Shown here one piece after another: positions 2,312 through 62,950 of a stretch of DNA of 64,000 bases. Every line of letters begins with the position of its first letter. Position 1 is the stretch's first letter. The notes under the pieces are model-generated. The model made no database searches. It was not told the origin of the DNA and worked only from the letters and a program-made list of their open reading frames with translations. The translations under genes and the position numbers were made by a program. Where the stretch lies: assembly GCA_964613815.1 (NCBI GenBank), contig CAZTKG010000001.1, positions 136,895-200,894 on the forward strand, written 5' to 3'. Origin of the DNA: an uncultured Gammaproteobacteria bacterium. Its GTDB lineage: Bacteria; Patescibacteriota; Patescibacteriia; UBA9934.

Positions 2312-2346
2312 ATTTAGTTAGATGATACCACAGGATCATTGTCTCA

Positions 2347-2386: not shown

Positions 2387-2388
2387 GT

Positions 2389-2628: not shown

Positions 2629-2646
2629 AGTCTTCAGGTCAATTTA

Positions 2647-3633: not shown

Positions 3634-3675
3634 TGAATTATATGTATTAGTTAATGAATAGATTATACCGTAGCA

Positions 3676-5022: not shown

Positions 5023-5032
5023 ATTTTTTTGA

Positions 5033-5371: not shown

Positions 5372-5403
5372 AGTCTCCTTTTTCGTATGTTATTATACCA
5401 TAC

Positions 5404-5919
5404 ATGTCTACGCGATATCTTCTCAGAACCCTCCGCCTTACAACGATAATCGTTGTTGGAATCTTTCTCATCCGTTCATTTGTTGCTGAGCCCGGTCGGG
5501 TCAATGGACGCTCGATGGAACCAACATTTTACGACCATGAATCGTTTGCTATCAATAAATTTCTCCTCCTGTTCCGTCAACCAAAAAGAGGAGAGATCGT
5601 TCAATTAACCTCTCCTCGCCTTGGCGATCTCGTCATCAAACGCATTATAGGGCTCCCTGGCGAGACTGTGCATATTCAGCAAAATAGTGTCTTCATCACA
5701 GCGGTAGACGGCAGCTATTACAAACTTGATGAATCATATCTCCCTGACAATAGCGTCACCCGTCACGATGATGGCAATGTGTCTATTGGTCCACTTAGTC
5801 CATTTACTTACTACCTTCTTGGTGACAATAGGTACGAAAGTGGAGACTCAAGAGAATACGGCCCAGTACACAGATCTGCTATTTACGGCACCGTGATCAA
5901 ACTCCCTTCGCTCAACTGA
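5404..5919 (+). CDS. lepB: Signal peptidase I (S26 family)
   Basis: N-terminal TM. Catalytic Ser box GRSMEPT (compare GDSMxPT). Lys box KRIIGLPGETV. Box E GDNRYESGDSREYGPV. A -10-like TATTAT lies 7 nt upstream of the ATG, suggesting a possibly leaderless transcript. Confidence 0.85.
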   Translation: MSTRYLLRTLRLTTIIVVGIFLIRSFVAEPGRVNGRSMEPTFYDHESFAINKFLLLFRQPKRGEIVQLTSPRLGDLVIKRIIGLPGETVHIQQNSVFITAVDGSYYKLDESYLPDNSVTRHDDGNVSIGPLSPFTYYLLGDNRYESGDSREYGPVHRSAIYGTVIKLPSLN

Positions 5920-7688: not shown

Positions 7689-7695
7689 AGACCTC

Positions 7696-9402: not shown

Positions 9403-9736
9403 GCGGCGTGTCCGCCTTCACCACATAATCCTTAGCCCCAAGGTCCATACCGGTCTTGATGTCTGACTCCTGTCCAAGATTTGAGAGGATGATGACCGGC
9501 ACCGCTTTCAACGCGTCCGACTTCTGCATCTCCGTAAGAACGCCAAACCCGTCCATCTTTGGCATGATGATGTCGAGAAGTACCAAAGCCGGCACCTCGC
9601 GCTTCATTGACTCTACTGCCTCCAAGCCGTTTTCGGCGATTTCGATGTTGAACCCTTCTTTTGCGAGCTTTTTCTGGTAGACGCCTGCGATTGCTGCGTC
9701 GTCTTCTACGATGAGGATCTTGTTCTCGGTGGCCAT
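9359..9736 (-). CDS. Stand-alone response-regulator receiver (CheY-like) protein
   Basis: KILIVEDD..., conserved D (LDIIMPKMDG), T/S (ILSN), K (KDYVVKA). 125 aa with no output domain. Confidence 0.85.
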   Translation of the reverse strand: MATENKILIVEDDAAIAGVYQKKLAKEGFNIEIAENGLEAVESMKREVPALVLLDIIMPKMDGFGVLTEMQKSDALKAVPVIILSNLGQESDIKTGMDLGAKDYVVKADTPLAEIIEKIRGYIGA

Positions 9737-9748
9737 AGCGATGATAAA

Positions 9749-11020
9749 TTACTGGCGTTTTTTCTTTTCTTCTTTGACGCGTCTTTTGATTGATCGCGAC
9801 AGCGTAACCTCTCCTTTCTTCTTGATCATACCACTCTTGGGAAGCGTGAACCAAAAGGTTGTCCCCTTCCCCATCGTTGAGGAAAAGCCGATTTCTCCGC
9901 CGGATGAGTCGACGATTGCTTTTGTGATGTAGAGACCGAGGCCGTTGCCGTCTGTGACGGAGCTTACGGCGTTGTCTGCGCGGAAGAATTTGGAGAAAAT
10001 GCGTTCTTGTTGTTCGTCTGGAATCCCGAGGCCGTCGTCGGTGATTTTAATTTTGATCATGTCGTTTGTTTGCGAGGATGCAATAGTGACATGTCCGCCT
10101 TCTGGCGTGTACTTGAGCGCGTTTGTCGTGAGGTTCATGACGACTTCGTGGATGAGGGATGGGTCTAAGTTGATTTGCGGGATTGTCTCGTCCTCTTCTA
10201 ACTTTACGTTTTGCTTCTTTTTTTCAATAAGCGCCTTTACGTCTTCTATCACTCCTCCAATAATCTCGCCCAGCGCTGTTGGGACAGGGTTTACCTGAAT
10301 TCTTCCGGACTCGATACGAGATACGTCGAGTAATGACCGAACGAGGCCTGCCATTCTATCTAATGACTTGGACATTTCTTTGATGTAGTCACCTTGCTCC
10401 TCGTTGAGTTTTCCCGCGTCTCCGTCGAGAAGCATCTCTGCATACCAACGAATTGAACTGAGCGGGGTGCGGAGCTGATGAGAGGCGACAGAGATGAATT
10501 CGCTTTTCATTTTGTCGATCGCTCGTTCGCGGCCGACGTCTCGAAAGACGACGATTGCGCCTTCGATTTCGCCGTGGACGACAAGCGGCGCTGCGGTGAC
10601 GTCGACCTCGATCTTGTGACCATCTGCATGATCAAATGTGAAGTCTGATGGACCTTTGACGGCAGATTTTTCCTTCATGCACTGCGTGACCGGTAGCTCG
10701 TCGGCGGAGGCGATGGACGTTCCTGCCGATCCCTGCCTGAGGAGTTCGAGTGCGGATTTACCGATAACGTCTTCGCTCACACGTCCAATGATTTTTTTGC
10801 CGGCACGGTTCATGAAGGTGATGTTTCCGTCGTGGTCTACCACGAATACCCCGTCCTCCATGGCGGCGAGGATAGCGTCGTTCTTTTGCGCCTGACGCTC
10901 CGCCTCATCTTTCTCGGCTTGGACGTCTTCTAGCACGCTCAATAATGATCGACGTGCATCTTCTGCGTACTGTTTTTCTGAGGTGACTTTGTAGTCGATT
11001 TTTTGATCTTCGCTTGGCAT
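9749..11020 (-). CDS. Cytoplasmic PAS-domain sensor histidine kinase
   Basis: PAS (ILAAMEDGVFVVDHDGNITFMN...). H-box SVASHQLRTPLSSIRWYAEML. N-box NLTTNALKYT. G1 DDGLGIP. F-box FSKFFRA. G2 GNGLGLYITK. No TM segments. Confidence 0.85.
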   Translation of the reverse strand: MPSEDQKIDYKVTSEKQYAEDARRSLLSVLEDVQAEKDEAERQAQKNDAILAAMEDGVFVVDHDGNITFMNRAGKKIIGRVSEDVIGKSALELLRQGSAGTSIASADELPVTQCMKEKSAVKGPSDFTFDHADGHKIEVDVTAAPLVVHGEIEGAIVVFRDVGRERAIDKMKSEFISVASHQLRTPLSSIRWYAEMLLDGDAGKLNEEQGDYIKEMSKSLDRMAGLVRSLLDVSRIESGRIQVNPVPTALGEIIGGVIEDVKALIEKKKQNVKLEEDETIPQINLDPSLIHEVVMNLTTNALKYTPEGGHVTIASSQTNDMIKIKITDDGLGIPDEQQERIFSKFFRADNAVSSVTDGNGLGLYITKAIVDSSGGEIGFSSTMGKGTTFWFTLPKSGMIKKKGEVTLSRSIKRRVKEEKKKRQ

Positions 11021-12477
11021 ATGTGAGAGTACTATACCATTTTCATGCCCATGACTTTCTCTCTGAGAATTGTATTCGTGCTAAGATCATTGCAAAGAAA
11101 ATCTTGCCTGTGGACAACTTGCTTCGGAACTTGATCAAGGAGGAACATGTACGTATTGAGGGTACGGCGAATTGTATTGCGAGCGAATCATACCCCTCGC
11201 AGGATGTTATTGATGCTGCGGCAAACGTGTTTACGGCGAAATATCAGATGGGCCTTCCCTACTCACGTGATGAGGATGGCGCGATTGATCGGTCGCGGCC
11301 GAGCCGTCTGTATGCAGGGACGCGCGTTTATGATCAGGTTGAGCTTCGAGCGATTGATGAATTGTTGAAGCTGTTTGGCTTGCGGGAGCTTGGGGATAGT
11401 TGGGCGAGCGTACAACCACTGTCTGGATCTCATGCGAATCTTTCTGTTTACCATGCGTTTTTGGGACGTGATGTTCGCGCTGTTGGATTTAATGCTGACC
11501 ATGGTGGACACTTCTCTCATGGAGACTCGCGATCGATCACGCAGCTTTCGGCAAATTGGGTGCAGTACGGAGTGACTTCATCTGGCCATATTGATTACGA
11601 TCAGATTGAAACGCTTTGTAAGCACTATCAACCTCGACTCTTGCAGGTTGGTGGCTCAACGATCGGGACGATTGTGAACTTTGAGCGCATTCGATCGATT
11701 GCTGATGCTTGTAATGTGCCGTATGTGATGGCGGACATCGCGCACACGGCAGGGCTTGTCGCGGCGCGTGTTGGGAAGTTTCAACAAGACGCGTTCGTGC
11801 CGTGGAAATGGTGTGATATTGTGACCACAACGACGCACAAAACGTTGCGTGGGATTTCTGGTGGAGCGATTCTTCTGCCGGATGGCCGGATGCTGAATTC
11901 GTGCGGGGTTTCGAATGATGCTGGACGGGTTTTGATGAATGCTGAAGTGCTTGAGGCGGCTATTTGTCCTGGCACCACGGCGAAGTCACCTGGGAATACC
12001 GTGCTCGCGAAGGCGGTCGGGTTTGCGGAAGGTCAGACGGATGCATTTCGTGATTGGGCGCAGCGCGTCGTTGATCATGCCGTTGCTATTGATAGGGCCC
12101 TGCGGCGTGAAGGCATTCCGTTGTTTGGAGTCGAGACAGAATCGCATTGTATTTTGATAGACACTGGCAGTCTCGGCTTTAGCGGTGCGCAGGTTCAGGA
12201 GGCGCTTGAAACGGCGAACATCATTACCAATGCTTGTTCACTCCCTCTTGCTGGTCATGACCTTGGCGGCGTGCGGATTGGAAGTACTGCGCTCACGTGC
12301 CGATTAGGGTTTGATGTCGATTCTGCGAATGCATTTGCGAAACTCCTTGCTCGCGCGATTAAATCTACCAACGATGAGAGCGCTCTCCGTGGTATCGGCG
12401 CTGAAGTCGTCTCTTTGATGAAACAATTTCCTATATATGGAGCAGTATCACAACATTCTCGTCCGCCAGATTCGTAA
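11014..12477 (+). CDS. glyA: Serine hydroxymethyltransferase-like PLP enzyme (divergent). The true start is probably an internal TTG/GTG near 11104-11122.
   Basis: SHMT motifs: NCIASESYPSQDVIDAAANVFTAKYQ, SVQPLSGSHANLSVYHAFL, TTTTHKTLRGISGGAILL (PLP-Lys). The annotated ATG at 11014 would overlap the divergent HK start by 7 nt. Confidence 0.7.
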   Translation: MAYVRVLYHFHAHDFLSENCIRAKIIAKKILPVDNLLRNLIKEEHVRIEGTANCIASESYPSQDVIDAAANVFTAKYQMGLPYSRDEDGAIDRSRPSRLYAGTRVYDQVELRAIDELLKLFGLRELGDSWASVQPLSGSHANLSVYHAFLGRDVRAVGFNADHGGHFSHGDSRSITQLSANWVQYGVTSSGHIDYDQIETLCKHYQPRLLQVGGSTIGTIVNFERIRSIADACNVPYVMADIAHTAGLVAARVGKFQQDAFVPWKWCDIVTTTTHKTLRGISGGAILLPDGRMLNSCGVSNDAGRVLMNAEVLEAAICPGTTAKSPGNTVLAKAVGFAEGQTDAFRDWAQRVVDHAVAIDRALRREGIPLFGVETESHCILIDTGSLGFSGAQVQEALETANIITNACSLPLAGHDLGGVRIGSTALTCRLGFDVDSANAFAKLLARAIKSTNDESALRGIGAEVVSLMKQFPIYGAVSQHSRPPDS

Positions 12478-12772
12478 GTTTTTGGCTGGAAAATCTTGTG
12501 AGCATGATCATAATGATTTTCTGGAGTCTGTTAGCGATACGTATACGCACGCGGATGAGGATCATGATTTGATTGAGCGTTCGCTTGATATTAGCTCCAA
12601 AGAATTGACGTCGATCAATGAGCAGTTGCGTGGGGAGATTAAACGGACAAAAGAGCAGGCCGATGAGTTGCGACGGCTCAATAAGGTGATGATTGGACGC
12701 GAGCTACGCATCATCGAATTAAAACAAGAAGTAAATTCACTACTTAATTCTAATAAGTATAAAGTCGAATAG
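12437..12772 (+). CDS. Coiled-coil signalling-linker-like hypothetical protein (111 aa)
   Basis: HDHNDFLESVSDTYTHADEDHDLIERSLDISSKELTSINEQL, then a heptad-rich C-terminus. Overlaps the glyA 3' end and is immediately followed by the FIST gene. Confidence 0.4.
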   Translation: MEQYHNILVRQIRKFLAGKSCEHDHNDFLESVSDTYTHADEDHDLIERSLDISSKELTSINEQLRGEIKRTKEQADELRRLNKVMIGRELRIIELKQEVNSLLNSNKYKVE

Positions 12773-12775
12773 CCT

Positions 12776-13906
12776 ATGCGTGTTGAACAAAAGCGGTGGA
12801 CCACTGATGGGTGGTCAGACGTGCGTGCGTTTGAAGGTGAGGCGAGTGCTCAGCTCGTTCTTGCGTTTGGTGGAAAAGCTGCGGTGATGGATGCGGATCG
12901 ATATAACGAGATGAAGGAGATGTATCCTGATGCGAACATTATTAGCTGCTCGACAGCTGGGGAGATTTTGGAAACGAGCGTTACAGACGATCAGATTGGA
13001 CTTGCGGCCGTCGCTTTTGACTCAACGGAGCTAAAGTTTGCTCAAGAGAGTATCGACAATGCTGATCAGAGTGAGGAGGTTGGTGCCAAGCTTGCGGGTG
13101 ATCTTGCTCCTGATGGTTTGCAGCATGTCCTTGTGTTTTCTGATGGAACGAAGGTGAATGGAACTGGGCTTGTGAAGGGACTGACAGATAATCTTCCTGA
13201 GAGTGTTTCTGTTACCGGCGGCCTTGTTGGTGACGGTGCGAACTTTAAGGAGACGGCTGTTGGGTTTAATGCTGCAGCAACACCTGGAAGTATCGTTGTT
13301 GTGGGACTTTATGGGGACTCTATTGAGGTCGGGTACGGCTCTCTTGGAGGTTGGGATCCGTTCGGCCCCGAAAGAACGATTACAAAGGCTGATGGAGGCG
13401 TACTGTTTGAGCTTGACGGTCAACCGGCGCTTAAGCTTTACAAAGAATATCTTGGTGATCAGGCGAAGGACTTGCCAGGATCTGGACTACTCTTCCCTCT
13501 TGCGCTTGAGGTTGATGGTGTGGAAGTTGTGCGGACGCTTCTTGGGGTGGATGAAGAGGCTCAGAGCATGACGTTTGCTGGAACGATGCCTGAGGGCGTG
13601 AAGGCGAAGTTGATGAAAGCGAATTTTGATCGACTTGTTGAGGGTGCGGCTGGAGCTGCTGCTTTGAATGCGGATAATATGAAAGATGGCGCTCAGCTTG
13701 GGATCTTGATTAGTTGTATTGGGCGGAAGCTTGTTTTGAAAGAGCGGATTGAGGATGAGATTGATGCGGTTCGGGAGAAGCTTGGGGAGAATGTGCCGCT
13801 GATTGGGTTTTACTCGTATGGAGAGATTTGTCCGACGAGTCCGACGGAGAAACAATGTCAGCTGCATAATCAGACGATGACGATTACGACGCTGCGGGAG
13901 AAATAA
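12776..13906 (+). CDS. FIST-domain sensory protein (FIST_N + FIST_C)
   Basis: The C-terminal GFYSYGEICP...QLHNQTMTITTL is characteristic of FIST_C. Length and lack of TM segments fit stand-alone FIST proteins. Confidence 0.7.
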   Translation: MRVEQKRWTTDGWSDVRAFEGEASAQLVLAFGGKAAVMDADRYNEMKEMYPDANIISCSTAGEILETSVTDDQIGLAAVAFDSTELKFAQESIDNADQSEEVGAKLAGDLAPDGLQHVLVFSDGTKVNGTGLVKGLTDNLPESVSVTGGLVGDGANFKETAVGFNAAATPGSIVVVGLYGDSIEVGYGSLGGWDPFGPERTITKADGGVLFELDGQPALKLYKEYLGDQAKDLPGSGLLFPLALEVDGVEVVRTLLGVDEEAQSMTFAGTMPEGVKAKLMKANFDRLVEGAAGAAALNADNMKDGAQLGILISCIGRKLVLKERIEDEIDAVREKLGENVPLIGFYSYGEICPTSPTEKQCQLHNQTMTITTLREK

Positions 13907-25443: not shown

Positions 25444-25480
25444 CCCCTCCCATCTCGACCTTGTGGAGAGATCTTTTACT
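25444..25480. repeat. REP-A half element (left arm only), fused to the REP-B copy that follows
   Basis: CCCCTCCCATCTCGACCTTGTGGAGAGATCT with no matching right arm; immediately followed by CCCATCCTGAGG... Confidence 0.7.
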
Positions 25481-25612
25481 CCCATCCTGAGGAGAGGGCG
25501 TGAAGGCGATGGACGGAAGGATCTCACGGCACGGCGCACTCTTTCGGCATGGACGTTGCTGTCCGCACGGGATCCTTCCGTCGCGCTAGGGCTGGCGCGA
25601 CTCAGGATGAGG
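25481..25612. repeat. REP-B palindromic element (about 130 nt, nested inverted repeats: CCCATCCTGAGGAG...GACGGAAGGATCTC...GGGATCCTTCCGTCG...CTCAGGATGAGGG)
   Basis: Intergenic between rpoD and pilB. Homologous to copies at 42153, 48640 and 50047. Confidence 0.8.
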
Positions 25613-25649
25613 GATTGTGGAAGAAAAAAATGCCTTTCGGCATGTTTTT

Positions 25650-36864: not shown

Positions 36865-37057
36865 CCTCCCGTTTGGGTGGTTTTTTGATCTGATGGGATC
36901 AGATCAACCCTTCGTAGCTCGCAGAGCGCCTGCCCTTCGAAGCTTCAGCGAAGAATGGGAAGAACGGGTCCCCTCTTTTTTTTACAGAGCTCCTCATATT
37001 GACAAATCACCTATTCCCTACTATGGTTCTTCTCCGTTCATTCAAATGGGAGAGCAA

Positions 37058-37591: not shown

Positions 37592-37621
37592 CTGCGCATG
37601 CGGTTTTTTTGATAGCGAAAA

Positions 37622-37690
37622 AGACCAGTCCTCCCATCTCGACCTTGTGGAGAGATCTCTCGACTACGCTCGAGATGGGAGGACTGGTCT
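37622..37690. repeat. REP-A palindromic element (full palindrome including the outer GACCAGTCC/GGACTGGTC arms)
   Basis: Between the convergent 37058..37591 gene and lepA. Confidence 0.85.
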
Positions 37691-37737
37691 TTTTTATGTC
37701 ATCCAGAGCGAAGCGCGGGATGACTGCATGGAGGCGT

Positions 37738-41461: not shown

Positions 41462-42682
41462 TTATTTTTGGATAATTGCTGAGCCAATGAGCTCATCTTC
41501 TTTGTAAAATGCGACAAACTGCCCTGGGGCGACTGCCCATTGCGGGACCTTGAATGTGACAGTGAGTTGATCTTCGATGAATTGGTATTCGCAGTCTTGC
41601 AGCTCCTGACGATAACGAATGCGGGCTTTAAGGGGAGTGTTTTGGTTGGTTTTGATGGCGCCCTTGGTTGTTTCTGTGATGTTTGTTGCAATGATCGTCG
41701 TCTTGAGGAGGATTTGATCTTCGCGATGCACTACAACGAGCTCGTTTGTGCCTGGACGTTTTTCTGCCACGTAAAGAGGATCACCGCCGCCAATGCCGAG
41801 GCCGTGGCGTTGGCCGATGGTGTAGTAGGCGTGGCCCTTGTGGGTTCCGAGGATGTCGCCGGCGGCGTTGATGATGTTTCCTGGTGATGGCGGGATTTGG
41901 TCGCTGAGGAATTCTTCTAGGGTGATGTGACCGACGAAGCAGAGGCCTTGGCTATCCTTCTTTGTTGCGACGGATAGGCTGTGCGTCTCTGCGATGCTGC
42001 GGACTTCTGATTTTTCGATGTTACCGATTGGGAACATCACTTTTTTTAGTTGGTCTTGCGTGAGACGGCAAAGGAAGTAGGATTGGTCCTTGTTTTTGTC
42101 GATACCAGCGAGGAGGTGGACTAGCTCACCTCCTTCCGATGCGCCTTCTCCTCTCCCATCCTGAGGAGGGGGATAGTTGCCCCCGACGGAAAGATCTTGT
42201 GCGGATGGCAACGTCCCTGCCGCGCGGCATGAGATCCTTCCGTCCGTCGGCTGGCGCTCTCCCTCCTCAGGATAGGAGGCAATATCAGCTGCGTTGAGTA
42301 TGCGCGCGTAGTGGCCTGTTGCGAGATAGTCGCAGCCCAAATCCTCTAACTGATCGAGAAGAAGGCCGAACTTCATATATTGATTACAGAGCACGTCTGG
42401 ATTTGGTGTTCGGCCGGCGGCGTATTCGTCTACCATGTATTGATAGACTTTTTCGCGGTACTGCTCTTCGAAGTCGAAGGTGTGGAGCTCGATATCTAAT
42501 TGCGCGGCAACCCGCATCGCATCTCGACGCTCTGCACGCCAAGTACATTCGCTGCCTGGGATGTTTTCTGACCAGTTTTTCATGAACGCGCCGACGACCT
42601 CGTAACCTTGTTCCAATAGCAAAACAGCCGACACACTTGAGTCGACGCCACCGCTCATAGCCAGGAGAACGCGTTTTTTCAT
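41462..42682 (-). CDS. mnmA: tRNA-specific 2-thiouridylase MnmA, carrying an in-frame REP-B insertion
   Basis: PP-loop LAMSGGVDSSV; conserved ...LATGHYARI and ...KNKDQSYFLCRL. Between them lies about 45 aa (DIASYPEEGERQPTDGRISCRAAGTLPSAQDLSVGGNYPPPQDGRGEGASEGG) that is the translation of REP-B. Confidence 0.85.
   Translation of the reverse strand: MKKRVLLAMSGGVDSSVSAVLLLEQGYEVVGAFMKNWSENIPGSECTWRAERRDAMRVAAQLDIELHTFDFEEQYREKVYQYMVDEYAAGRTPNPDVLCNQYMKFGLLLDQLEDLGCDYLATGHYARILNAADIASYPEEGERQPTDGRISCRAAGTLPSAQDLSVGGNYPPPQDGRGEGASEGGELVHLLAGIDKNKDQSYFLCRLTQDQLKKVMFPIGNIEKSEVRSIAETHSLSVATKKDSQGLCFVGHITLEEFLSDQIPPSPGNIINAAGDILGTHKGHAYYTIGQRHGLGIGGGDPLYVAEKRPGTNELVVVHREDQILLKTTIIATNITETTKGAIKTNQNTPLKARIRYRQELQDCEYQFIEDQLTVTFKVPQWAVAPGQFVAFYKEDELIGSAIIQK
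42153..42279. repeat. REP-B palindromic element inserted in-frame inside mnmA
   Basis: TCCCATCCTGAGGAGGGGG...GACGGAAAGATCTTGTGCGGATGGCAACGTCCCTGCCGCGCGGCATGAGATCCTTCCGTCCGTCGG...CCTCCTCAGGATAGGAGG. Confidence 0.85.
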
Positions 42683-42727
42683 AGTTTGAGATGATAGCTT
42701 GGATTTTGATGTTTGGCAACTGCCTCA

Positions 42728-42800
42728 CTCCCATCTCGACCTTGTGGAGGGATCTGATTGCGGCAGGTGCAAGATCTCTCCACAAGGTCGAGATGGGAGG
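42728..42800. repeat. REP-A palindromic element
   Basis: TCCCATCTCGACCTTGTGGAGGGATCTGATTGCGGCAGGTGCAAGATCTCTCCACAAGGTCGAGATGGGAGG. Confidence 0.85.
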
Positions 42801-42844
42801 AATGAGAATGACAGGAAACAAAAAAGCCCTGCTTGCTGCAGAGG

Positions 42845-43240
42845 CTACGGACGATCGTCTTTGGGGAAGTCGATCAGGATGTTGCAGGTCCCGTAGAAAC
42901 CAGCGCAGACCTGCGGGTCGGTGCGACCGTTATCGCAGACGTGCTCGGCGACGGGGATGGTGTCGGCGTACTCGATCCAGGTGACCGGGCCGTCCGTGAT
43001 TTTTTGGATGAAGTAGGTGACGTTCGGGCCGCTCATGGCGAGCGCATAGCCCGGATGCCCCATCCCGGAGGTGCTTTCGAGGTAGATGTCGAACTCGCCC
43101 CAGTCGATGATGGTGACCGCTGCGCGAGGCGGGGCCTGCACGCGCTCCTCGTTGACGAAGATCGTGTTCACGGGCCAGGCCTTGACCCTGGGAGCGTCGC
43201 CAGCGGAGACTGTGAGGGAGAGAAGGAGCAATGGGATCAT
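42845..43240 (-). CDS. Small secreted hypothetical protein (131 aa)
   Basis: Signal peptide MIPLLLLSLTVSAGDA, 4 Cys. Confidence 0.45.
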   Translation of the reverse strand: MIPLLLLSLTVSAGDAPRVKAWPVNTIFVNEERVQAPPRAAVTIIDWGEFDIYLESTSGMGHPGYALAMSGPNVTYFIQKITDGPVTWIEYADTIPVAEHVCDNGRTDPQVCAGFYGTCNILIDFPKDDRP

Positions 43241-43297
43241 GTCGTCTCCGTGTGAAGTGACGGTTTAATCTAACACTTCTTTAAAGATATGTCAAGA

Positions 43298-43326
43298 TTG
43301 ACACAGCTATTTCTATCATCTATATT
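43298..43326 (+). promoter_or_regulatory. Consensus sigma70 promoter for tRNA-Gln: TTGACA-17 bp-TATATT
   Basis: TTGACA at 43298-43303, 17-bp spacer, TATATT at 43321-43326. Confidence 0.6.
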
Positions 43327-43401
43327 GTCGACACATCACTCCCGGACCCCACGTCGCTCTTTGAGCTATGTTAGGGGTTGATCCGGGATCGATTTTATTA
43401 C

Positions 43402-43475
43402 TCCCGGATCGTCTAACGGCAGGACACCAGGTTCTGGTCCTGGTAATCGGGGTTCGAGTCCCTGTCCGGGAACCA
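43402..43475 (+). tRNA. tRNA-Gln (anticodon CUG), CCA encoded
   Basis: Manual cloverleaf. Acceptor TCCCGGA/TCCGGGA. D-arm GTCT-AACGGCA-GGAC. Anticodon arm CCAGG-TTCTGGT-CCTGG (anticodon CTG). T-arm CGGGG-TTCGAGT-CCCTG. Discriminator A, then CCA. Confidence 0.75.
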
Positions 43476-43478
43476 AGT

Positions 43479-43507
43479 AAAAAAGCTATCTTTGGATAGC
43501 TTTTTTA
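43479..43507 (+). terminator. Rho-independent terminator after tRNA-Gln (AAAAAGCTATCTTTGGATAGCTTTTTT)
   Basis: 9-bp stem, TTTG loop, T-run. Confidence 0.6.
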
Positions 43508-43538
43508 CTTGGTTTGATGTCTATTTGCAAATCCCCCC

Positions 43539-43612
43539 TTCCCATCTCGACCTTGTGGAGAGATCTTTGGATTTCGGAGGCTACAGGATCTCTCCACAAG
43601 GTCGAGATGGGA
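43539..43612. repeat. REP-A palindromic element
   Basis: CCCATCTCGACCTTGTGGAGAGATCTTTGGATTTCGGAGGCTACAGGATCTCTCCACAAGGTCGAGATGGGAG. Confidence 0.85.
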
Positions 43613-43624
43613 GATTGAGGTCTT

Positions 43625-43662
43625 ATTGACAATCCTGTATTACAATTGTATTATTTTAGCAA
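43625..43662 (+). promoter_or_regulatory. Sigma70 promoter for the TA operon (TTGACA-17-TATTAT), with a 10-bp perfect palindrome TACAATTGTA overlapping the spacer/-10; candidate antitoxin operator
   Basis: TTGACAatcctgtattacaattgTATTAT read directly. The palindrome TACAATTGTA is self-complementary. Confidence 0.5.
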
Positions 43663-43677
43663 ACATAATCTATTTCT

Positions 43678-43905
43678 ATGCGACAAGTTGTCAGCCTCTC
43701 TTTAGCTCCCGCAGATGTCAAAAAACTCAAAAGGCGCGTGAAGGAGCGTGGCCTTGCTTCATCTAGCGCATATGTGAAGCAGCTCCTCGACGAAGACGAG
43801 AATCTCATCTCCGCAGACGAGCTTGAATCCATCATTAAAGAAGGAGATGCAGAGTATGATCGCGGAGAGACGGTTTCTGCAAAATCTGTTCTCGATCTTC
43901 TATGA
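43678..43905 (+). CDS. Type II antitoxin (RelB/ParD/Phd-like, 75 aa)
   Basis: Small acidic protein immediately upstream of, and ATGA-overlapping, a RelE/ParE-like toxin. AT-rich. Confidence 0.55.
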   Translation: MRQVVSLSLAPADVKKLKRRVKERGLASSSAYVKQLLDEDENLISADELESIIKEGDAEYDRGETVSAKSVLDLL

Positions 43906-44174
43906 TCGTTCGTGATATTAAATTCACAAAAAGATTTATCAAGGACCTCTCTGGGCTCAGTGAGACTGATCGTGACTTAGTTGCGAAAAAGGAGTCTATC
44001 TTTAGATCCAACCCCCTTCATCCTTCTCTTCGGCTTCATCGACTCAAGGGCAATTTGTCTGGCGTGTGGTCTATTTCTGTGACAAATAAGATTCGCATAA
44101 TTTTCAAACGGAAGGACGGAGGAGTTATCCTGTTTTACTCTGTTGGAAAACACGACATTTACAAAAACCTATAA
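43902..44174 (+). CDS. Type II toxin, RelE/ParE superfamily (90 aa)
   Basis: HRLKGNLSGVWSISVTNKIRIIFKRKDGGVILFYSVGKHDIY matches the RelE/ParE C-terminal fold signature (h.LkG...W..R...YRiiY...). Confidence 0.7.
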   Translation: MIVRDIKFTKRFIKDLSGLSETDRDLVAKKESIFRSNPLHPSLRLHRLKGNLSGVWSISVTNKIRIIFKRKDGGVILFYSVGKHDIYKNL

Positions 44175-44204
44175 AAACTCCTCCCAATTGGGAGGTTTTT
44201 GGGA

Positions 44205-44636
44205 TCAGCGAGGCTCTTCTACCCGCTTGACCATGAGGGATCTCGTGCTTCGTAGAACCTGGAAGATGTGAAGCTTGCCGTCCAGCCAGCACAGTGCAAT
44301 GAGATATTCCCAAAGCATGAATGCAATGGCGCCTCCAGCGGCGAGATGCTGGAATGCTTCCATTGCTCCACTCAGCTTGAACAGCTTGCACTCGATGTCT
44401 GCCGGGAGCTCGTCGTAGAGCCCAATGTGAGACTTTCCATCGATCCGGAGCGTGACCTGTTGCGGGGTGCCATCATCGGCGATGGCATGGATCCCGATCA
44501 CGAGGCTTTTGATGTAGCGATGCGTTTGAATGTGACTCGCTGCGATGTCCACCGCTCCGTGCGGGTTGTCTTCTGTGATCCGCACTTCTCGAATGACTGA
44601 ATTGCTCGACCCGATGACGATTCTTTGGACCTGCAC
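44205..44636 (-). CDS. Hypothetical protein (143 aa)
   Basis: ORF only. Possible PRC-barrel/PilZ-like beta-rich N-terminus; no firm motif. Confidence 0.35.
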   Translation of the reverse strand: MQVQRIVIGSSNSVIREVRITEDNPHGAVDIAASHIQTHRYIKSLVIGIHAIADDGTPQQVTLRIDGKSHIGLYDELPADIECKLFKLSGAMEAFQHLAAGGAIAFMLWEYLIALCWLDGKLHIFQVLRSTRSLMVKRVEEPR

Positions 44637-44716
44637 CTTTTCTCCTTAAAAGAACTGGCTTTAACGTAGCAATCTGCGTATAAAAAGTCCACCCCGTGAG
44701 GGGTGGTTCGAGGGTT

Positions 44717-45529
44717 TCAAACGGGGAGCATTTGATGGAACGCAAACTTCTCGTCGTGCGTCTCGATGTGGATCTTCTCCCAGCTGCCGTCATCGTCGAC
44801 CCAGACCACACCTTCGTACGTGTGCCCGCCGAGTTCGACGAGGACAGAGAATTGGACGCGGTCGGTGGCGGTGCCGTCTCGGACGCCGGCGATGATGATC
44901 CTAGCGTTCCCCTTCGTGGGGGTTCCGCGACGGACGAGGGGGAGAACGATCGCCTCTTGCGATCGCATCATGCCCCAGAGCATGTCAGGCGGGAGCTTGA
45001 TAGGCTCTCCTCTTCCAGCTGCCTTGCGGCGATCCATGATGTCGAGATTGAGCTGGAATGTTCGACGAAGGTATTCGGTGTGTGTCAGCAGCCTATTCAG
45101 CTCCGACAGAGAATGCCCAGCCGGAGCAACGAAGCCCCTGTGCCCCCGACCCCTGGGATTGTAGCAGCCGTAGATGAGCTGAGCACCTTCAAGCTGTCCG
45201 CACGCTGAGTGATACTGTTTCATTTCGCGACTCAAATTGAACCACGAATTGCCACCGGCATTTGCGCGTTCCAGAAAGGCCCAGAACGTGTCCGGACCAC
45301 CCAGTCCGAGATTTACCACACCGAGCAATACGATGCGGACAGACTTAACTTCGGCACACTCGTTGCAGGTGTCGGCATGGGGATGGTCGCATCTCGCCGT
45401 GTGACCACGAATTCCGATCGTCGTTACACGACCCCTGTCTGCCATGGCCAGACTCCATTCATGTACCCCGGGACCGCTCATGACAGACCGTGTGCCGACG
45501 AGCTCGTAGCCCCCTCTTCTTGAGGTCAT
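44717..45529 (-). CDS. Hypothetical protein (270 aa), GC-rich, His/Cys-rich N-terminus
   Basis: ORF only. A metallophosphoesterase was considered but the motif order does not fit. Confidence 0.35.
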   Translation of the reverse strand: MTSRRGGYELVGTRSVMSGPGVHEWSLAMADRGRVTTIGIRGHTARCDHPHADTCNECAEVKSVRIVLLGVVNLGLGGPDTFWAFLERANAGGNSWFNLSREMKQYHSACGQLEGAQLIYGCYNPRGRGHRGFVAPAGHSLSELNRLLTHTEYLRRTFQLNLDIMDRRKAAGRGEPIKLPPDMLWGMMRSQEAIVLPLVRRGTPTKGNARIIIAGVRDGTATDRVQFSVLVELGGHTYEGVVWVDDDGSWEKIHIETHDEKFAFHQMLPV

Positions 45530-45610
45530 GCAGACCTCCTTGCGCTTGTGCGCGGCTTGGATTGCACTGCCGGATGCACCGGTCAGTGTTCTGCCTTGTG
45601 GCGGAAATGT

Positions 45611-46018
45611 TTATATCCTTTCCCAATGCACATGCAGAAGGAACGGGTCCCAGTGCAGGGCGATGATGTGGGTCTTTGTATTGATCGAGACCGCCTTGCC
45701 GGTGAGGAGTGCCTCCGCGGCAAGCTTGATCTGACTGATCGTGAATGGGTGGCAGGTCTTGCCTGAAGGAATTGGCTCTGAACCTGTTGTTCGGGCGGTG
45801 CCGTTCTTCTCGATCCGCATCTCGCCTAGATCATCTCCAACGATGGCGATCTCGGCGGATTCTGACAATTGGAATGTGCTGATCATGTCGATGAATTCAT
45901 GGTGCTCAGCGAACTCTCGCGGATCGCCCCAATTATCACGCCCGTCGCCTCCATGCAGAAAGCTGACGCGCGTAATGACTTCTGTGCCATTTCGCAGCAT
46001 GAATTCGCGTACGCGCAT
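45611..46018 (-). CDS. Hypothetical protein (135 aa from MRVREFML)
   Basis: ORF only. The track ORF starts at 46078, which lies inside REP-C. Confidence 0.35.
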   Translation of the reverse strand: MRVREFMLRNGTEVITRVSFLHGGDGRDNWGDPREFAEHHEFIDMISTFQLSESAEIAIVGDDLGEMRIEKNGTARTTGSEPIPSGKTCHPFTISQIKLAAEALLTGKAVSINTKTHIIALHWDPFLLHVHWERI

Positions 46019-46076
46019 GCTTGCCTCCTGTGTGAATGAGCGGTGTGGGAGTGTAGCAGGGGGGTTGGGAGATGTC

Positions 46077-46192
46077 AATGCGTCTGCGTGTCATCCTGAG
46101 GCACGAAGGACCCATTCGGTTGGCACTACCTATATCGGTCGACGTCGATCGTGGGCACGTATGCAGCCGAATGGATCCTTCGTGCCTCAGGA
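46077..46192. repeat. REP-C palindromic element (GTCATCCTGAGGCACGAAGGACCCATTCGG...CCGAATGGATCCTTCGTGCCTCAGGATGAC), a full long inverted repeat
   Basis: About 21-bp perfect terminal arms plus inner CATTCGG/CCGAATG arms. Related to REP-B (shared CATCCTGAGG core) and to partial copies at 58940 and 62868. Confidence 0.8.
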
Positions 46193-46223
46193 TGACACAG
46201 GGAGGATCTGCTATAATCCACGC

Positions 46224-46661
46224 ATGACCACTCTCGAACAGCACGTCCTCACTGGACTTCGGGCGCATAGTGCGCAGATACTTCGTTTTAGCCTTGGTGT
46301 TGTCTTTCTCTGGTTTGGCGTCATGAAGTTAATGATGAATACGCCGGTGACCGAGCTTTTGGCGGCGACGTATACCATGCTGCCGGTGATGGAGACTGTT
46401 ATTGTGCTCGGAGTTCTGGAAGTCTTTGTAGCGATCGGACTTCTTTGCGGGATCTTTTTGCGGACGACGATTGCGTTCACGGTTCTTCACCTTCTTGGGA
46501 CGTTTTTTACGTTAGCTCTTAATCCCTCCCTCTTTTTTGAACCTGGGCAGTTTTGGATTCTGACGTTTGAGGGGGAATTTATTATCAAAAATGTTGTGCT
46601 ACTTGCTGCGGCGCTTGTGATTGCGGGGCATCAGACGCATGAGAAGAAGTACGGGAAATAA
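46224..46661 (+). CDS. Small four-TM membrane protein (DoxX/YkgB-like), 145 aa
   Basis: Start MTTLEQHVL. A TATAAT box ends 6 nt before the ATG, suggesting a possibly leaderless transcript. Four hydrophobic helices. Confidence 0.5.
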   Translation: MTTLEQHVLTGLRAHSAQILRFSLGVVFLWFGVMKLMMNTPVTELLAATYTMLPVMETVIVLGVLEVFVAIGLLCGIFLRTTIAFTVLHLLGTFFTLALNPSLFFEPGQFWILTFEGEFIIKNVVLLAAALVIAGHQTHEKKYGK

Positions 46662-46679
46662 AAAATCCTCCTGAGGTTT

Positions 46680-47048
46680 TCAGGCGGACAAGTGGTAGAT
46701 GTTGAGGCCGTCGGCGCGCCAGGCGAGGCCGATGAGGCCGCCTCGGTGGAGCATTGCGGCCGCGCCTCCATCGGCGATGATGGTGAGCATGGTGCGGAGC
46801 CCCTCTAGGTAATGGACTCTGTATGGGATCCCCTGAACCCAAGGGATGTCACCACTGAGTATCACGTCCATCCCCCGCTCATTGAACTTGACCCTAATGC
46901 CAGCGGCATAGAATATCACGCCCCAGTCTGTGGTCATGTTACGGAAGATACGCCTGACATTGGCACGGTCGTTCTTGTGAGCCCCCGGGGTTTGGATGAT
47001 TTCGGATGCGTCTTCGCTGGTCACGACGGTGATCTGCTGTACTTTCAT
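46680..47048 (-). CDS. Hypothetical protein (122 aa from MKVQQITVV)
   Basis: ORF; divergent from the phosphatase gene. Confidence 0.4.
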   Translation of the reverse strand: MKVQQITVVTSEDASEIIQTPGAHKNDRANVRRIFRNMTTDWGVIFYAAGIRVKFNERGMDVILSGDIPWVQGIPYRVHYLEGLRTMLTIIADGGAAAMLHRGGLIGLAWRADGLNIYHLSA

Positions 47049-47130
47049 GATTTCTCCAAGGTGCGCATGCAGACTATCATGCGGACATGGCATTGTCCAT
47101 GCTATTTCCTATCATCAAATCAGACCACTT

Positions 47131-47583
47131 ATGCAAGACCACGAAGCAATTGAAAGCGTTAGCCAGATCACAGACCAACTCTATGTTGGGTCGAGTTTTT
47201 GTTGCCAGACGCATTTTTCGGAGAAGCTTTTGGCATTAGGGATCTCGGCGGATGTTTCGATGCAGCTTGAGAGGATCGACCGAGCTGAGGGGGCGGAGTC
47301 TTACTTGTGGCTGCCAGTGATGGATATGACGGCGCCGAGTCAGGATGTTTTGAAGATTGGAGCGGATCATATCGCGAGCTTGATCGCGCTCGGGCGGAAG
47401 GTGTTTGTGCATTGTCGGAATGGGCATGGACGGGCGCCGACGATGGCGAGCGCGTACCTTGTCAGCACTGGAATGAACGCGGAGGAGGCAATGCATCTTG
47501 TTATGAAAAAGCGGCCCGAGACGCATATGAATGCGGAGCAGCGGGCCGCTGTTGAGGAGTTTGCTGTTCGGTTTTCCGCGTAG
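47131..47583 (+). CDS. Dual-specificity / protein-tyrosine phosphatase (CX5R family)
   Basis: Active-site P-loop VHCRNGHGRAPTM (HCxxGxxR) with an upstream Asp-containing loop. Start taken at MQDHEAIES. Confidence 0.7.
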   Translation: MQDHEAIESVSQITDQLYVGSSFCCQTHFSEKLLALGISADVSMQLERIDRAEGAESYLWLPVMDMTAPSQDVLKIGADHIASLIALGRKVFVHCRNGHGRAPTMASAYLVSTGMNAEEAMHLVMKKRPETHMNAEQRAAVEEFAVRFSA

Positions 47584-47655
47584 TTTGTATCCGTAAACGA
47601 TAAAGCCGCACTCGAGAGTCCGAGTGCGGCTCTTTGAGTGCGGCAAAGATGAGGA

Positions 47656-48147
47656 TCAGGGAGCGAGGACGTCGCAGCCGGTGCCCTCGCAGCCCACGAA
47701 GTTCGAGAGGTTGACGTAGTAGGGCTGCCCGAATACCGGGCGGCTGGCTGTGAACTGGCTCTGCGTGGCCATCTCAGCGCCTACGGTGAGGCGAGCGTCG
47801 GGGATGCTCGTGACCACGCCACGGACGTCTCGAGTCTCGATCCGAAGTTCGATGTACTCGAACGTCGCGATCATGAAGCTCGGGACGCGGTAGGTCGCGA
47901 CCCCGACCTCGGCCATGACCGAGCCGTTCAGGTTGTACATCCCGGTCCAGGGACCGTCGACGGCGTTGATGTCCTTGGTCAGGAGGCGGACGAGCGGGTA
48001 GTCACCGGTCCAGTCCACCATCACGAAGTTGGAGACCAGGAGCGGCTCACCGACTTCGTTCTCCTTGGCGTCTCCCTAGGTGGCGAGCGCGGTGTTCGGG
48101 ATCAGCGTTCCGAGGCCCAGGAGGGCGAGGAAAATCAGGTTGCGCAT
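47656..48147 (-). pseudogene. Secreted protein gene interrupted by a single in-frame TAG (codon 24, directly after the predicted signal peptide MRNLIFLALLGLGTLIPNTALAT); possible pseudogene, sequencing error or stop-codon readthrough
   Basis: ATG at 48147 and TAG at 48076-48078 are in the same frame as the downstream ORF 47656..48024. Upstream there is a TTGACA-N17-TATACA promoter. Confidence 0.45.
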
Positions 48148-48294
48148 TGGCAAACCCCTGTGATAGTTGTGGTAAAAAAGGTCTGTCGGCTATCCCTGCC
48201 GTAGGGGTACTGAGACATATATGTATAGCACAAAAAATTGCTTTTGTCAATGTGATAACCCTGTTTTGTGTGTCTTTGTTGCGTTTTGAGCTAA

Positions 48295-50010
48295 CTAATC
48301 CACCACACTCCCTCCAAACGCTAACGCGAGGTCGTGGAGGTTTTTTTCGTCTTCTGAGAGTTCGAGGATTGGTTCGATTTTCACGGAGCCCTGCATGACC
48401 TTGCCTACCGCTTCTTCGATGATGTCGAGATGCTTGCGGGCGTTACAGGTTTCGAAGTGAAACGCGTGCGTGAATGAGAGGACAACGACGTTTCCTCGGA
48501 TAGATGTTGGCTTTGCGGACTTGAGGACTAAGGGTAGGGCAACGCTTCTTTTCGCGACCAGCTCGCAGCAGCGGCCCCATTTTGCGGCAAGGTCTTCTGC
48601 GGTGAATTTGGCTAGCGGGGCTTCATCTGTTGTTTTTTTTTGAGGTTCTTCATTCCCGTCCTGAGGAGGGAGAGCTGAGCCGACTGACGGAAGGATCTCT
48701 TCCGACTTCCCCATATCGACCGGTGTGGAGATATCTTGCATTTTGGCCGCGGCCTGAGATCTCTCCGCAGGGTCGAGATAGGAGGCGGGAGTTTGTGTTG
48801 GCGGTGATGACTGCGGCGATCGTGATGGCTGTGCCGCGTGGGGGGAGATCCTTCCGTCGAGGGGGGTATCCCTCGACTCAGGATGGGAGGGAGGCGGAGA
48901 CTGTGTCGGTGATAGCAGCTGTGCTGACCCTTCTTCCTCGCAGAATTCTACAAATGCAATTTCTATTGGGAGCTGTGGGAAGAGCTCGTGTGCCGGTCTT
49001 GATCTTGCGGTGAGCAGGAGGTCGATGAGTTTTCTTGCGCGTGCGGACGGGAGCGCGGTTGCGGATGATTTGAGGTTTGCGAGCGCTTGTTCGTCGTAGC
49101 GTTCTGAAAGGTTGCCTCCGAGGCCGGTGAGCATGACGTCGCGGACGTATTCGATGAGTTCGTCGAGGAGGTGGCGGACGGAGGTACCTGCTGCTGTGGC
49201 CTCGGTGAGCTTGTCGATGGAGGCTTTTGCGTCCGATGTGGCGAGGGTTGTGGTCATTTGTGCAACGAGATCGGCGTGGGTCTTTGGAAGGACAAGCGAG
49301 GCGTCGTCTGTGGATATCTCGTCGAGGCCGAGTGCGAGGACCTGTTCGAGGATGCTTTCTGCGTCTCGGAGGCAGCCTTCTGAAAGGCGGGCGATGGATG
49401 GGTAGACTTCGTCGGCGATCTTGACACCTTCTTTTTCTGACAGCAGCTTTAGGCGACCGATCATGCCTTTCATGGAGATTCTGTGAAAATCAAAACGCTG
49501 ACATCTGGAAAGGATGGTTTGCGGGATTTTGTGGAGCTCGGTTGTGGCGAGGATGAAGATAACGTGTGCTGGAGGTTCTTCGAGGGTTTTGAGGAGGGCG
49601 TTGAACGCTGAGGTTGAAAGCATGTGGACCTCGTCGATGATGAAGACTTTTTTGCGATCTCCGCCTGGAGAGACGCGGGCGGCTTCGATGATGTTTTCTC
49701 GGACGTTGTCGACACCTGTGTGAGACGCGGCGTCGATTTCTGCGACGACCATTGTTCGGCCGTTTGTAATGCCTTCGCAGGACTGGCACGTACCGCAGGG
49801 CTCGTAGCCGTCTTTTAGCTCTCCGCAGTTGACGGCTTTTGCGAGGAGGCGGGCCGTGGTCGTCTTCCCTACTCCGCGCGGGCCGGAGAAAATGTAGGCA
49901 TGAGCGACTTTGTCTTGTTTTATTTGGTTTTGAATGGTTTTGGAGACGTGCTCTTGGCCGCAGACGTCTGCGAATGTTTGTGGGCGGTATTTTCGATAGA
50001 GTGAAGGCAT
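48295..50010 (-). CDS. dnaX: DNA polymerase III subunit gamma/tau DnaX, carrying in-frame REP-B plus nested REP-A insertions in the linker region
   Basis: Start MPSLYRKYRPQTFADVCGQEHV (ATG 50010; the track ORF extends 52 codons into the upstream REP-B). Walker A GPRGVGKTT, Zn module CGTCQSC, SRC motif, conserved C-terminal domain. About 88 aa of translated repeat sits between domain III and the C-terminal domain. Confidence 0.85.
   Translation of the reverse strand: MPSLYRKYRPQTFADVCGQEHVSKTIQNQIKQDKVAHAYIFSGPRGVGKTTTARLLAKAVNCGELKDGYEPCGTCQSCEGITNGRTMVVAEIDAASHTGVDNVRENIIEAARVSPGGDRKKVFIIDEVHMLSTSAFNALLKTLEEPPAHVIFILATTELHKIPQTILSRCQRFDFHRISMKGMIGRLKLLSEKEGVKIADEVYPSIARLSEGCLRDAESILEQVLALGLDEISTDDASLVLPKTHADLVAQMTTTLATSDAKASIDKLTEATAAGTSVRHLLDELIEYVRDVMLTGLGGNLSERYDEQALANLKSSATALPSARARKLIDLLLTARSRPAHELFPQLPIEIAFVEFCEEEGSAQLLSPTQSPPPSHPESRDTPLDGRISPHAAQPSRSPQSSPPTQTPASYLDPAERSQAAAKMQDISTPVDMGKSEEILPSVGSALPPQDGNEEPQKKTTDEAPLAKFTAEDLAAKWGRCCELVAKRSVALPLVLKSAKPTSIRGNVVVLSFTHAFHFETCNARKHLDIIEEAVGKVMQGSVKIEPILELSEDEKNLHDLALAFGGSVVD
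48640..48905. repeat. Composite repeat inside dnaX: REP-B left arm (48640-48710), a degenerate REP-A (48711-48784), about 60 nt, and the REP-B right arm (about 48845-48905)
   Basis: TCCTGAGGAGGGAGAGCTGAGCCGACTGACGGAAGGATCTC | CCCATATCGACCGGTGTGGAGATATCT...AGATCTCTCCGCAGGGTCGAGATAGG | ...GAGATCCTTCCGTCGAGGGGGGTATCCCTCGACTCAGGATGGGAGGG. Confidence 0.8.
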
Positions 50011-50046
50011 AGATGATGGGAGTTTAACATATCCTTCCGCGTCGAC

Positions 50047-50190
50047 CGAGTCTGACATGCCTCCCATCCTGAGGAAGGAGAGCGCCAGCCGACGGACGGA
50101 AGGATCTCGTGCCGCGCGGCATGGACGTCGATGTCCGCACGGGATCCTTCCGTCGGGGGCGGCCATCCCCCTCCTCAGGATGGGAGCTCA
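50047..50190. repeat. REP-B palindromic element in the dnaX 5' leader
   Basis: CCTCCCATCCTGAGGAAGGAGAGCGCCAGCCGACGGACGGAAGGATCTCGTGCCGCGCGGCATGGACGTCGATGTCCGCACGGGATCCTTCCGTCGGGGGCGGCCATCCCCCTCCTCAGGATGGGAGC. Confidence 0.8.
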
Positions 50191-58939: not shown

Positions 58940-59010
58940 GGTGATTTTTTATATGCCGGGGGCATATAAACCCTTCGTAGCTCTACGAGCGAAGAACGGG
59001 TGGACACCCC
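58940..59010. repeat. REP-C partial copy in reverse orientation (TTTTTTATATGCCGGGGGCATATAAACCCTTCGTAGCTCTACGAGCGAAGAACGGGTGG)
   Basis: Its reverse complement aligns, at about 80 percent identity, to 62890-62950 (CCATTCTTCGCTGAAGCTTCGAAGGGTTCATATGCCCCCGGCATATGAAAAAAATCACC). Confidence 0.65.
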
Positions 59011-62867: not shown

Positions 62868-62950
62868 TCATCCTGAGGCACGGAGGATCCATTCTTCGCT
62901 GAAGCTTCGAAGGGTTCATATGCCCCCGGCATATGAAAAAAATCACCACC
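62868..62950. repeat. REP-C partial copy (TGTCATCCTGAGGCACGGAGGATCCATTCTTCGCTGAAGCTTCGAAGGGTTCATATGCCCCCGGCATATG...)
   Basis: The left arm matches the REP-C at 46077. The inner part matches the inverted 58940 copy. Confidence 0.65.

Follow-up and report, generated by a model that had tools for sequence, protein, structure and literature searches.

Palindromic repeats of two families nested in the reading frame of dnaX are very probably translated as part of the tau linker in a patescibacterial genome

Can repeat DNA become established inside an essential replication gene, and can it be translated there as part of the protein? This question is raised by a stretch of 64,000 nucleotides (nt) of an uncultured bacterium that is deposited as a Gammaproteobacteria bacterium and placed by GTDB in the Patescibacteriota (Patescibacteriia; UBA9934), namely positions 136,895 to 200,894 of contig CAZTKG010000001.1 in GenBank assembly GCA_964613815.1, referred to below as the window. 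Its minus strand carries dnaX, the gene of the tau/gamma clamp-loader subunit, whose coding sequence (CDS) probably starts, judged from homology, at methionine 53 (M53) of a longer open reading frame (ORF). Between domain III and the C-terminal domain of the encoded protein, this ORF contains copies of two palindromic repeat families, REP-A and REP-B, one lying within the other. In our view this segment (48653-48889) is very probably selfish repeat DNA whose translation product now belongs to DnaX.

A repeat search of the whole window returned the two families. REP-A is a palindrome of ~50-85 nt (TCCCATCTCGACCTTGTGGAGAGATCT..loop..AGATCTCTCCACAAGGTCGAGATGGGA) with 27-nt arms and a variable loop, and is present in 15 copies. 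REP-B (CTCCCATCCTGAGGAGG..GACGGAAGGATCTC..loop..GGGATCCTTCCGTC..CCTCCTCAGGATGGGAG) measures 126-136 nt and is present in four copies and one variant. The canonical REP-B unit, CTCCCATCC...GGATGGGAG, comprises 126 nt, which is exactly 42 codons, in the copies at 42153-42278 and 50061-50186, and the loop varies from 31 nt in two copies to ~42 nt in the copy at 25479. Both families share the terminal octamer CTCCCATC/GATGGGAG, and the hairpins of the repeat copies have z-scores of about -4 to -12. According to the gene calls of the source contigs, all REP-A copies outside dnaX (14 in the window and one in the ±9-kb extensions) are intergenic, and they are found between convergent, divergent and co-directional gene pairs. 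REP-A and REP-B are physically associated a second time at 25445-25614, in an architecture that differs from the nest in dnaX (Table 1).

The structure of the repeat DNA in dnaX was resolved with nhmmer models that were built from the copies outside dnaX and searched against the window. They returned a full-length REP-A match inside the gene (48706-48790, E=4.6e-14), together with a left arm (48649-48701, model positions 9-62, E=4.7e-10) and a right arm of REP-B (48846-48889, model positions 94-138, E=2.6e-7). These REP-B arms are collinear on one strand and 144 nt apart, compared with ~31 nt in the model. This split arrangement is far beyond chance, and in the coordinates of the hidden Markov model (HMM) the interruption falls exactly in the apical loop of REP-B. 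An earlier note on this DNA, made from the sequence alone, had described a degenerate REP-A nested in a split REP-B within dnaX, and the nhmmer coordinates bear this out. The same note had given the composite about 265 nt and 88 residues in the dnaX frame. The open frame was confirmed, but with its ends defined by the two canonical 126-nt REP-B copies the composite comprises 237 nt, or 79 codons, and begins at the third base of codon 374 (numbered from M53). The reading frame is open through the composite and continuous with the conserved C-terminal domain.

As a whole the composite adopts a nested-hairpin fold (-98.7 kcal/mol, z=-5.05). Its inner element is decayed: the REP-A arms in dnaX are 85-88% identical to the consensus, compared with 92-100% for the intergenic copies, and their hairpin reaches only -31.5 kcal/mol (z=-3.3), compared with -52 to -60 kcal/mol (z -9 to -12) for intergenic REP-A. 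The REP-B arms in dnaX are 82-86% identical to the REP-B family.

Table 1. Coordinates of the dnaX and mnmA reading frames and of the repeat elements associated with them (window positions)
Feature	Position	Strand	Description
dnaX, longest ORF	48295..50166	-	623 aa
Probable dnaX (tau) CDS	48295..50010	-	571 aa, start = M53 of the longest ORF
N-terminal ORF extension	50011..50166	-	52 codons; ATG at 50166, within the leader REP-B
Canonical REP-B, dnaX leader	50061..50186		126 nt, ~50 nt upstream of the probable start; nhmmer 146 bits
REP-B/REP-A composite	48653..48889	-	237 nt, 79 codons, residues ~374-453 from M53, tau linker
REP-B arm, left on the + strand (3' arm in mRNA)	48653..48701		Encodes ..EEILPSVGSALPPQDGNE; 86% identity to canonical copies
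Decayed REP-A palindrome within the REP-B loop	48708..48784		Encodes ..ASYLDPAERSQAAAKMQDISTPVDMGK..; nhmmer full-length match
Filler between REP-A and the right REP-B arm	48785..48845		61 nt; encodes P/S/Q-rich stretch (SPHAAQPSRSPQSSPPTQTP)
REP-B arm, right on the + strand (5' arm in mRNA)	48846..48889		Encodes ..SHPESRDTPLDGRIS..; 82-84% identity to canonical copies
Tau peptide stretch of the composite region			SHPESRDTPLDGR...PPQDGNEEPQK
A9 run on the dnaX coding strand (T9 on the + strand)	48633..48641	-	CAA AAA AAA ACA = Q K K T; candidate slippage site
In-frame REP-B in mnmA	42153..42278	-	126 nt, 42 codons
mnmA ORF (MnmA, tRNA 2-thiouridylase)	41462..42682	-	406 aa
REP-A left half (25445-25478) abutting REP-B (25479-25614)	25445..25614		136-nt REP-B; intergenic, between sigma-70 gene and T2SSE gene

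When the protein is aligned with 15 homologs, conservation breaks off at ...PQLPIEIAFVEFC and sets in again at ...FTAEDLAAKWGRCC. The linker in between, which holds the composite, cannot be aligned, and none of the 15 has a counterpart of the composite. In an AlphaFold model built on the same alignment, the domains to either side are predicted with confidence and residues 362-465, which enclose the composite, have a predicted local distance difference test score (pLDDT) below 50, so that the whole composite lies within the disordered tether that joins domain III to the C-terminal domain. Both results agree with the earlier proposal of extra in-frame residues between these two domains. The composite peptide is P/S/Q-rich and resembles natural tau linkers. 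Measured from motif to motif, the linker has 125 residues, compared with 54-139 (median 85.5) in 112 homologs, among which one unrelated homolog is longer. The best matches come from Uhrbacteria- and Magasanikbacteria-like bins, with the nearest DnaX ~51-55% identical, and a scan of genome contigs returned no close relative. In the closest relative found, L206 (GCA_035092285.1), the dnaX linker is without REP signal. The linker of the closest homolog (P0002) seemed to resemble the REP-encoded peptide, but this was rejected, since the corresponding DNA has no REP signal and the likeness is one of chance between low-complexity sequences.

The assignment of the gene to dnaX and the position of its start are supported by homology. 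Pfam recognizes DNA_pol3_delta2, AAA, the lid domain, domain III and DnaX_C in the ORF; Pfam and NCBIfam together place domains I-III at ~54-410 and DnaX_C at 522-601 of its 623 residues, and the NCBIfam dnaX models cover ~54 to ~600. Solved structures of Escherichia coli tau/gamma match DnaX residues 4-410. All 15 aligned homologs, like the NCBIfam profiles, start at M53 ('MPSLYRKYRPQTF'). The public gene calls for this dnaX give 590 aa (from M34) and 623 aa (from M1). Both begin inside a canonical REP-B in the dnaX leader, because this element supplies false start codons: it carries a GGAGG-ATG combination and further ATGs. The leader REP-B forms a strong hairpin (-92.5 kcal/mol, z=-9.5). 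The 52-codon extension upstream of M53 exists as an ORF, and it probably belongs outside the DnaX protein; the earlier description of it as a spurious product of the leader REP-B has the support of homologs and profiles, which is short of proof.

A second REP-B lies in frame within mnmA. Solved MnmA structures align on both sides of it and have nothing opposite query residues 132-186. The MnmA of L206 is well conserved around the site, and precisely where the REP-B lies it shows a clean gap of 52 residues; for MnmA, the site is thus seen as an alignment gap between conserved blocks. The mnmA element (-76.5 kcal/mol) and the leader REP-B of dnaX are 89% identical and inverted relative to one another. 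In mnmA and dnaX the phase of REP-B relative to the element end is the same, and the encoded peptides share the motifs S-H/Y-P-E ... DGRIS ... PPQDG. With the mnmA case, in-frame insertion of REP-B is recurrent in the source genome.

The arrangement of the two host genes is a separate observation. In L206, mnmA neighbors dnaX at a distance of 386 nt (L206 2659-3043). In the window they keep the same order and strand, yet are separated by 5.6 kb (42683-48294) of hypothetical genes, a YafQ/HigB-like toxin pair (43678-44174), a tRNA-Gln (43402-43475), a DSPc phosphatase, a DUF417 gene and three repeat copies. The leader REP-B and the mnmA REP-B, in inverted orientation, bracket dnaX together with this intervening block, and the bracketed stretch of 7.8 kb may represent an island that was inserted or a segment able to invert.

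Beside the composite, the dnaX coding strand carries a run of nine A (context C-A9-C) located 11 nt 3' of the composite. The earlier note had proposed looking for a programmed frameshift around the insert, and this slippery run is what such a look revealed. It is the sole homopolymer of at least nine in the window, and stops follow after two codons in the -1 frame and after five codons in the +1 frame. In Thermus thermophilus dnaX, an A9 run yields gamma by transcriptional slippage (PMC3711429). The site described here resembles the Thermus type (PMC3711429; PMC5009743) in that nine A lie in the linker after domain III and stops are present in both alternative frames within a few codons, and differs from it in that a 237-nt composite is placed between domain III and the run. 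An A9 run with immediate out-of-frame stops is also found in the dnaX linkers of other Patescibacteria (loci L001, L003, L020, L027 and L032), of Acidobacteriota and of Geobacterales, and A8-A9 sites with near stops occur in dnaX at loci L053, L056, L064, L065, L067 and others. Relatives carry the run without any REP; the closest relative, L206, has no A9-type run in dnaX. Where it could be measured, the A9 of relatives lies 24-49 codons past the domain III motif, in a shared KKT context. The distance here is 105 codons, or 26 after subtraction of the 79 composite codons, and the composite thus separates domain III from a slippage site that appears to be conserved. By analogy with Thermus, the A9 run is a candidate site of transcriptional slippage for a gamma-like product, for which the C-termini ...PQKKNNR or ...PQKKQQMKPR are predicted. 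If slippage operates here, tau and the gamma-like product would both carry the repeat-encoded peptide, and the production of tau and gamma by slippage may extend to bacteria of the Candidate Phyla Radiation (CPR).

The origin of the composite might be explained as follows. A non-autonomous, palindromic REP-B of 126 nt would have entered tau's unstructured tether at a point past domain III but ahead of the A9 run, which is itself followed by the C-terminal domain. REP-A (~77 nt, with termini identical to those of REP-B) and the 61-nt filler would then have come to lie in the apical loop of this REP-B, a later arrival being the simplest reading. The nested topology points to the order REP-B first, REP-A later. 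The earlier note spoke of successive waves of insertion. The nesting on which this was founded is confirmed, but divergence gives no order, since each part has ~85% identity to its own family (85-88% for the REP-A arms, 82-86% for the REP-B arms). The gene probably survives for several reasons: 237 nt are divisible by three, the elements are nearly stop-free, and the site is a disordered, P/S/Q-rich linker of variable length. A stop-poor insert of a multiple of three in a flexible linker would thus result in a tau with 79 extra linker residues. In an essential gene, selection would eliminate insertions that shift the frame or bear stops, and only the non-disruptive ones would persist.

Several points weigh against this explanation. 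Since the elements are poor in stop codons, an open frame is by itself weak evidence, and the composite is indeed open in three of the six frames; what is informative is that, in an essential gene, an insertion of 237 nt leaves the conserved C-terminal domain in the frame of domains I-III. Taking the composite away would reduce the linker to 46 residues, fewer than the minimum of 54 among the 112 homologs; this would mean that native linker sequence has since been lost, or else that the "insert" is in part native. The 61-nt filler within the composite matches no other repeat, and no other copy of it exists in the window beyond chance-level matches. No empty-site dnaX allele is present in public data, because no close relative exists and the closest DnaX proteins are those mentioned above. 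The flanks of 19 copies, including every REP-B, are without direct repeats and thus show no target-site duplication, and among the genes called across ~81 kb there is no transposase-type or RAYT-like Pfam domain. Mobility of the elements we infer solely from their dispersed copies, and the argument for translation of the insert is made from the sequence.

The same evidence has to be weighed against other explanations, the most trivial of which is an assembly artefact. Short dispersed repeats are a classic source of metagenome misassembly, and repeats might have been collapsed or mis-joined into dnaX. Absence of the insert from independent assemblies was the outcome that the earlier note considered damaging to its case. 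Instead, at three loci from different samples (JGI 3300008954; ENA ERZ23498905, SUTE22-1 scaffold_2 of 579 kb; ENA ERZ23499077) a stretch of 7773 nt that includes the composite matches the window with 100% identity, and the exact DnaX protein is found on nine contigs. Repeat-induced misassembly is very unlikely because the copies in dnaX are only 82-88% identical to any other copy, so that reads are not confusable; the frame and the C-terminal domain are moreover intact. The chance that the composite is an artefact is accordingly negligible. An equally negligible chance has to be given to removal of the segment as an intron, as an intein or by translational bypass, in which case it would add no residues. 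CPR genomes are known for introns in their rRNA genes, and the segment does form a large hairpin, but it has no match to group I or group II introns or to any other Rfam family, and Pfam shows no intein-like domain. Nothing needs removing from a segment that is in frame and stop-free, and the mnmA element is likewise exactly 42 codons long.

Arrival in one step deserves more weight, although it is still improbable. A pre-formed REP-B carrying REP-A, or a REP-B variant with a long loop, could have been inserted as a unit. The junction at 25445-25614 indicates that composites of the two families can form elsewhere, the about equal divergence of both parts from their families would fit a single event, and the filler represents loop content beyond REP-A. 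However, neither the window nor the ~17 kb of its extensions contains a second composite, and the junction at 25445-25614 is built differently, with the REP-A half outside a complete REP-B. It is also conceivable, though very unlikely, that the element has been co-opted: slippage or frameshifting, and with it the gamma:tau ratio, would be tuned by the nested hairpin, which lies 11 nt upstream of the A9 run, and/or the 79 residues would now be a required part of the tether. An A9 run with immediate out-of-frame stops is rare in the genome and recurrent in the dnaX of relatives, a strong nested RNA hairpin lies just 5' of it, nascent-RNA stem-loops can reportedly stimulate slippage (Penno et al., 2015, PNAS), and the linker minus the composite is shorter than in every homolog. 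On the other hand, relatives have the A9 run without REP and the Thermus site needs no hairpin, the REP-A hairpin in dnaX is decaying, and the 11-nt spacer plus the 9-nt run set the stem farther from the polymerase active site than terminator-like stimulators. An influence of the hairpin on slippage is speculation. We would give a slim chance, but hardly more, to the wider proposal that a CPR lineage possesses its own coding-compatible palindromes of the Rickettsia kind (a 42-codon unit with few stops) that recurrently join housekeeping proteins, and that the dnaX insert has been co-opted doubly, as most of the tau tether and as a hairpin that modulates gamma versus tau at the A9 run. Compared with these alternatives, we favor selfish repeat DNA that entered the tau linker and is now translated with it.

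Among known systems, the closest analogue of REP-A and REP-B is the set of Rickettsia palindromic elements (RPE-1 to RPE-10; Ogata et al., 2000, 2002; summaries in PMC10969869 and PMC3767692), together with the related Wolbachia palindromic elements. RPEs are palindromic repeats of 100-150 bp, nearly half of which lie in frame within unrelated genes (PMC10969869), and their hosts include the DNA polymerase III alpha gene in Rickettsia (PMC3767692). In both systems, palindromes of ~100-150 bp are scattered over a small, reduced genome, and some of them lie in frame in unrelated genes with housekeeping functions, a replicase subunit among them, with the conserved flanking domains intact (dnaX and mnmA in our case); the encoded peptide is recurrent; and the site is flexible and fold-compatible, which in DnaX is the linker of low pLDDT. 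No mobilising enzyme is known for the RPEs, and none was found here among the genes called across ~81 kb. The earlier statement that essential replication genes tolerate such elements thus holds for the intact dnaX described here, and was already known from RPE in the Rickettsia polymerase III alpha gene (PMC3767692). There are also differences. The host belongs to the Patescibacteria/CPR, whereas RPE hosts are Alphaproteobacteria; two families with the same 8-nt termini are present; inside a gene, the loop of one element contains the other, an arrangement of which the two summaries (PMC10969869, PMC3767692) make no mention; and two coding insertions have so far been found in 64 kb. REP-A and REP-B are likened to RPE by features, as an analogue and not as a member by descent, and Rfam gave no match.

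[quoted passage not shown] Both families described here have terminal inverted repeats (CTCCCATC...GATGGGAG) and are shorter than 300 bp. Classical MITEs, however, have target-site duplications, which are lacking at the 19 copies, and a cognate insertion sequence with matching terminal inverted repeats, which was not found in ~81 kb. A third comparison concerns the REP/BIME elements that are associated with RAYTs (IS200/IS605-like Y1 transposases). REPs are extragenic, 20-40 nt long and have a conserved GTAG/CTAC head. REP-A and REP-B resemble them in being palindromic, in having no target-site duplication and in being dispersed between genes, often at 3' gene ends or between convergent genes. 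In contrast, the units described here are 50-136 nt long and start with CTCCCATC, two copies are located inside genes, and no Y1_Tnp match was obtained in ~81 kb; an assignment to REP/RAYT is not supported.

The distribution of the elements beyond this genome was also explored. Rfam contains no family that matches REP-A or REP-B, and no intron or other RNA family covers the dnaX region. The 45-aa REP-B peptide had no matches in a set of 5.8 billion proteins. A profile of two REP-B peptide sequences, searched exhaustively with HMMER against 1.84 billion representatives, gave one marginal, repeat-like match (E=7e-4), which indicates that REP-B peptides are not a widespread protein module; host proteins of the source genome may be hidden behind insert-free 50% representatives in that search. 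Scans of viral contigs with the REP-A and REP-B cores found nothing. A metagenome scan with the REP-B pattern GATCCTTCCGTCN{12,28}CTCAGGA yielded 120 matches that were all due to chance, as the pattern was too loose and none of them contained REP-A or REP-B by HMM. The idea that REP-A targets the loops of host hairpins was rejected as well, since self-complementarity of the flanks was not above the cross-copy control (p=0.13).

Palindromes that code in frame for protein have so far been described as peculiar to Rickettsia and Wolbachia, and the elements described here represent an independent, unrelated set in the Patescibacteria. This suggests that coding palindromes accompany small, reduced, host-dependent genomes more generally, where selfish hairpin elements might serve as raw material for protein linkers, those of the replicase included. 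The elements are also of practical importance for annotation. With their few stops, Shine-Dalgarno-like sequences and ATGs they mislead gene callers, as in the 590- and 623-aa calls for dnaX and in the false N-terminal extension of the DUF417 gene, and they also inflate the apparent protein novelty of CPR genomes.

At the DUF417 gene, a REP-B-like palindrome (GTGTCATCCTGAGGCACGAAGGA...TCCTTCGTGCCTCAGGATGACAC; 46088-46198) with 35-nt arms that are 94% complementary lies just upstream. It extends the ORF to 306 aa (45741..46661); the called gene is 46224..46661, with 145-166 aa. The REP-A copy at 37627-37683 is enclosed by a perfect host palindrome of 16 nt whose tails are an A-run and a T-run (AAAAAGACCAGTCCTC ... 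GAGGACTGGTCTTTTT; 37613-37697). No other copy is flanked in such a manner; this one, located between lepA and a gene convergent with it, resembles a bidirectional terminator. Positions 1-13900 of the window have a G+C content of 44-49%, compared with 50-58% elsewhere, and are without a REP-A or REP-B copy; repeat density is therefore uneven along the genome. A separate family of small repeats (TTTTTTATATGCCGGGGGCATATAAACCCTTCGTAGCT), which is unrelated to REP-A and REP-B, occurs in direct and inverted orientation at 36882-36928, 58945-58991 and 62903-62940.

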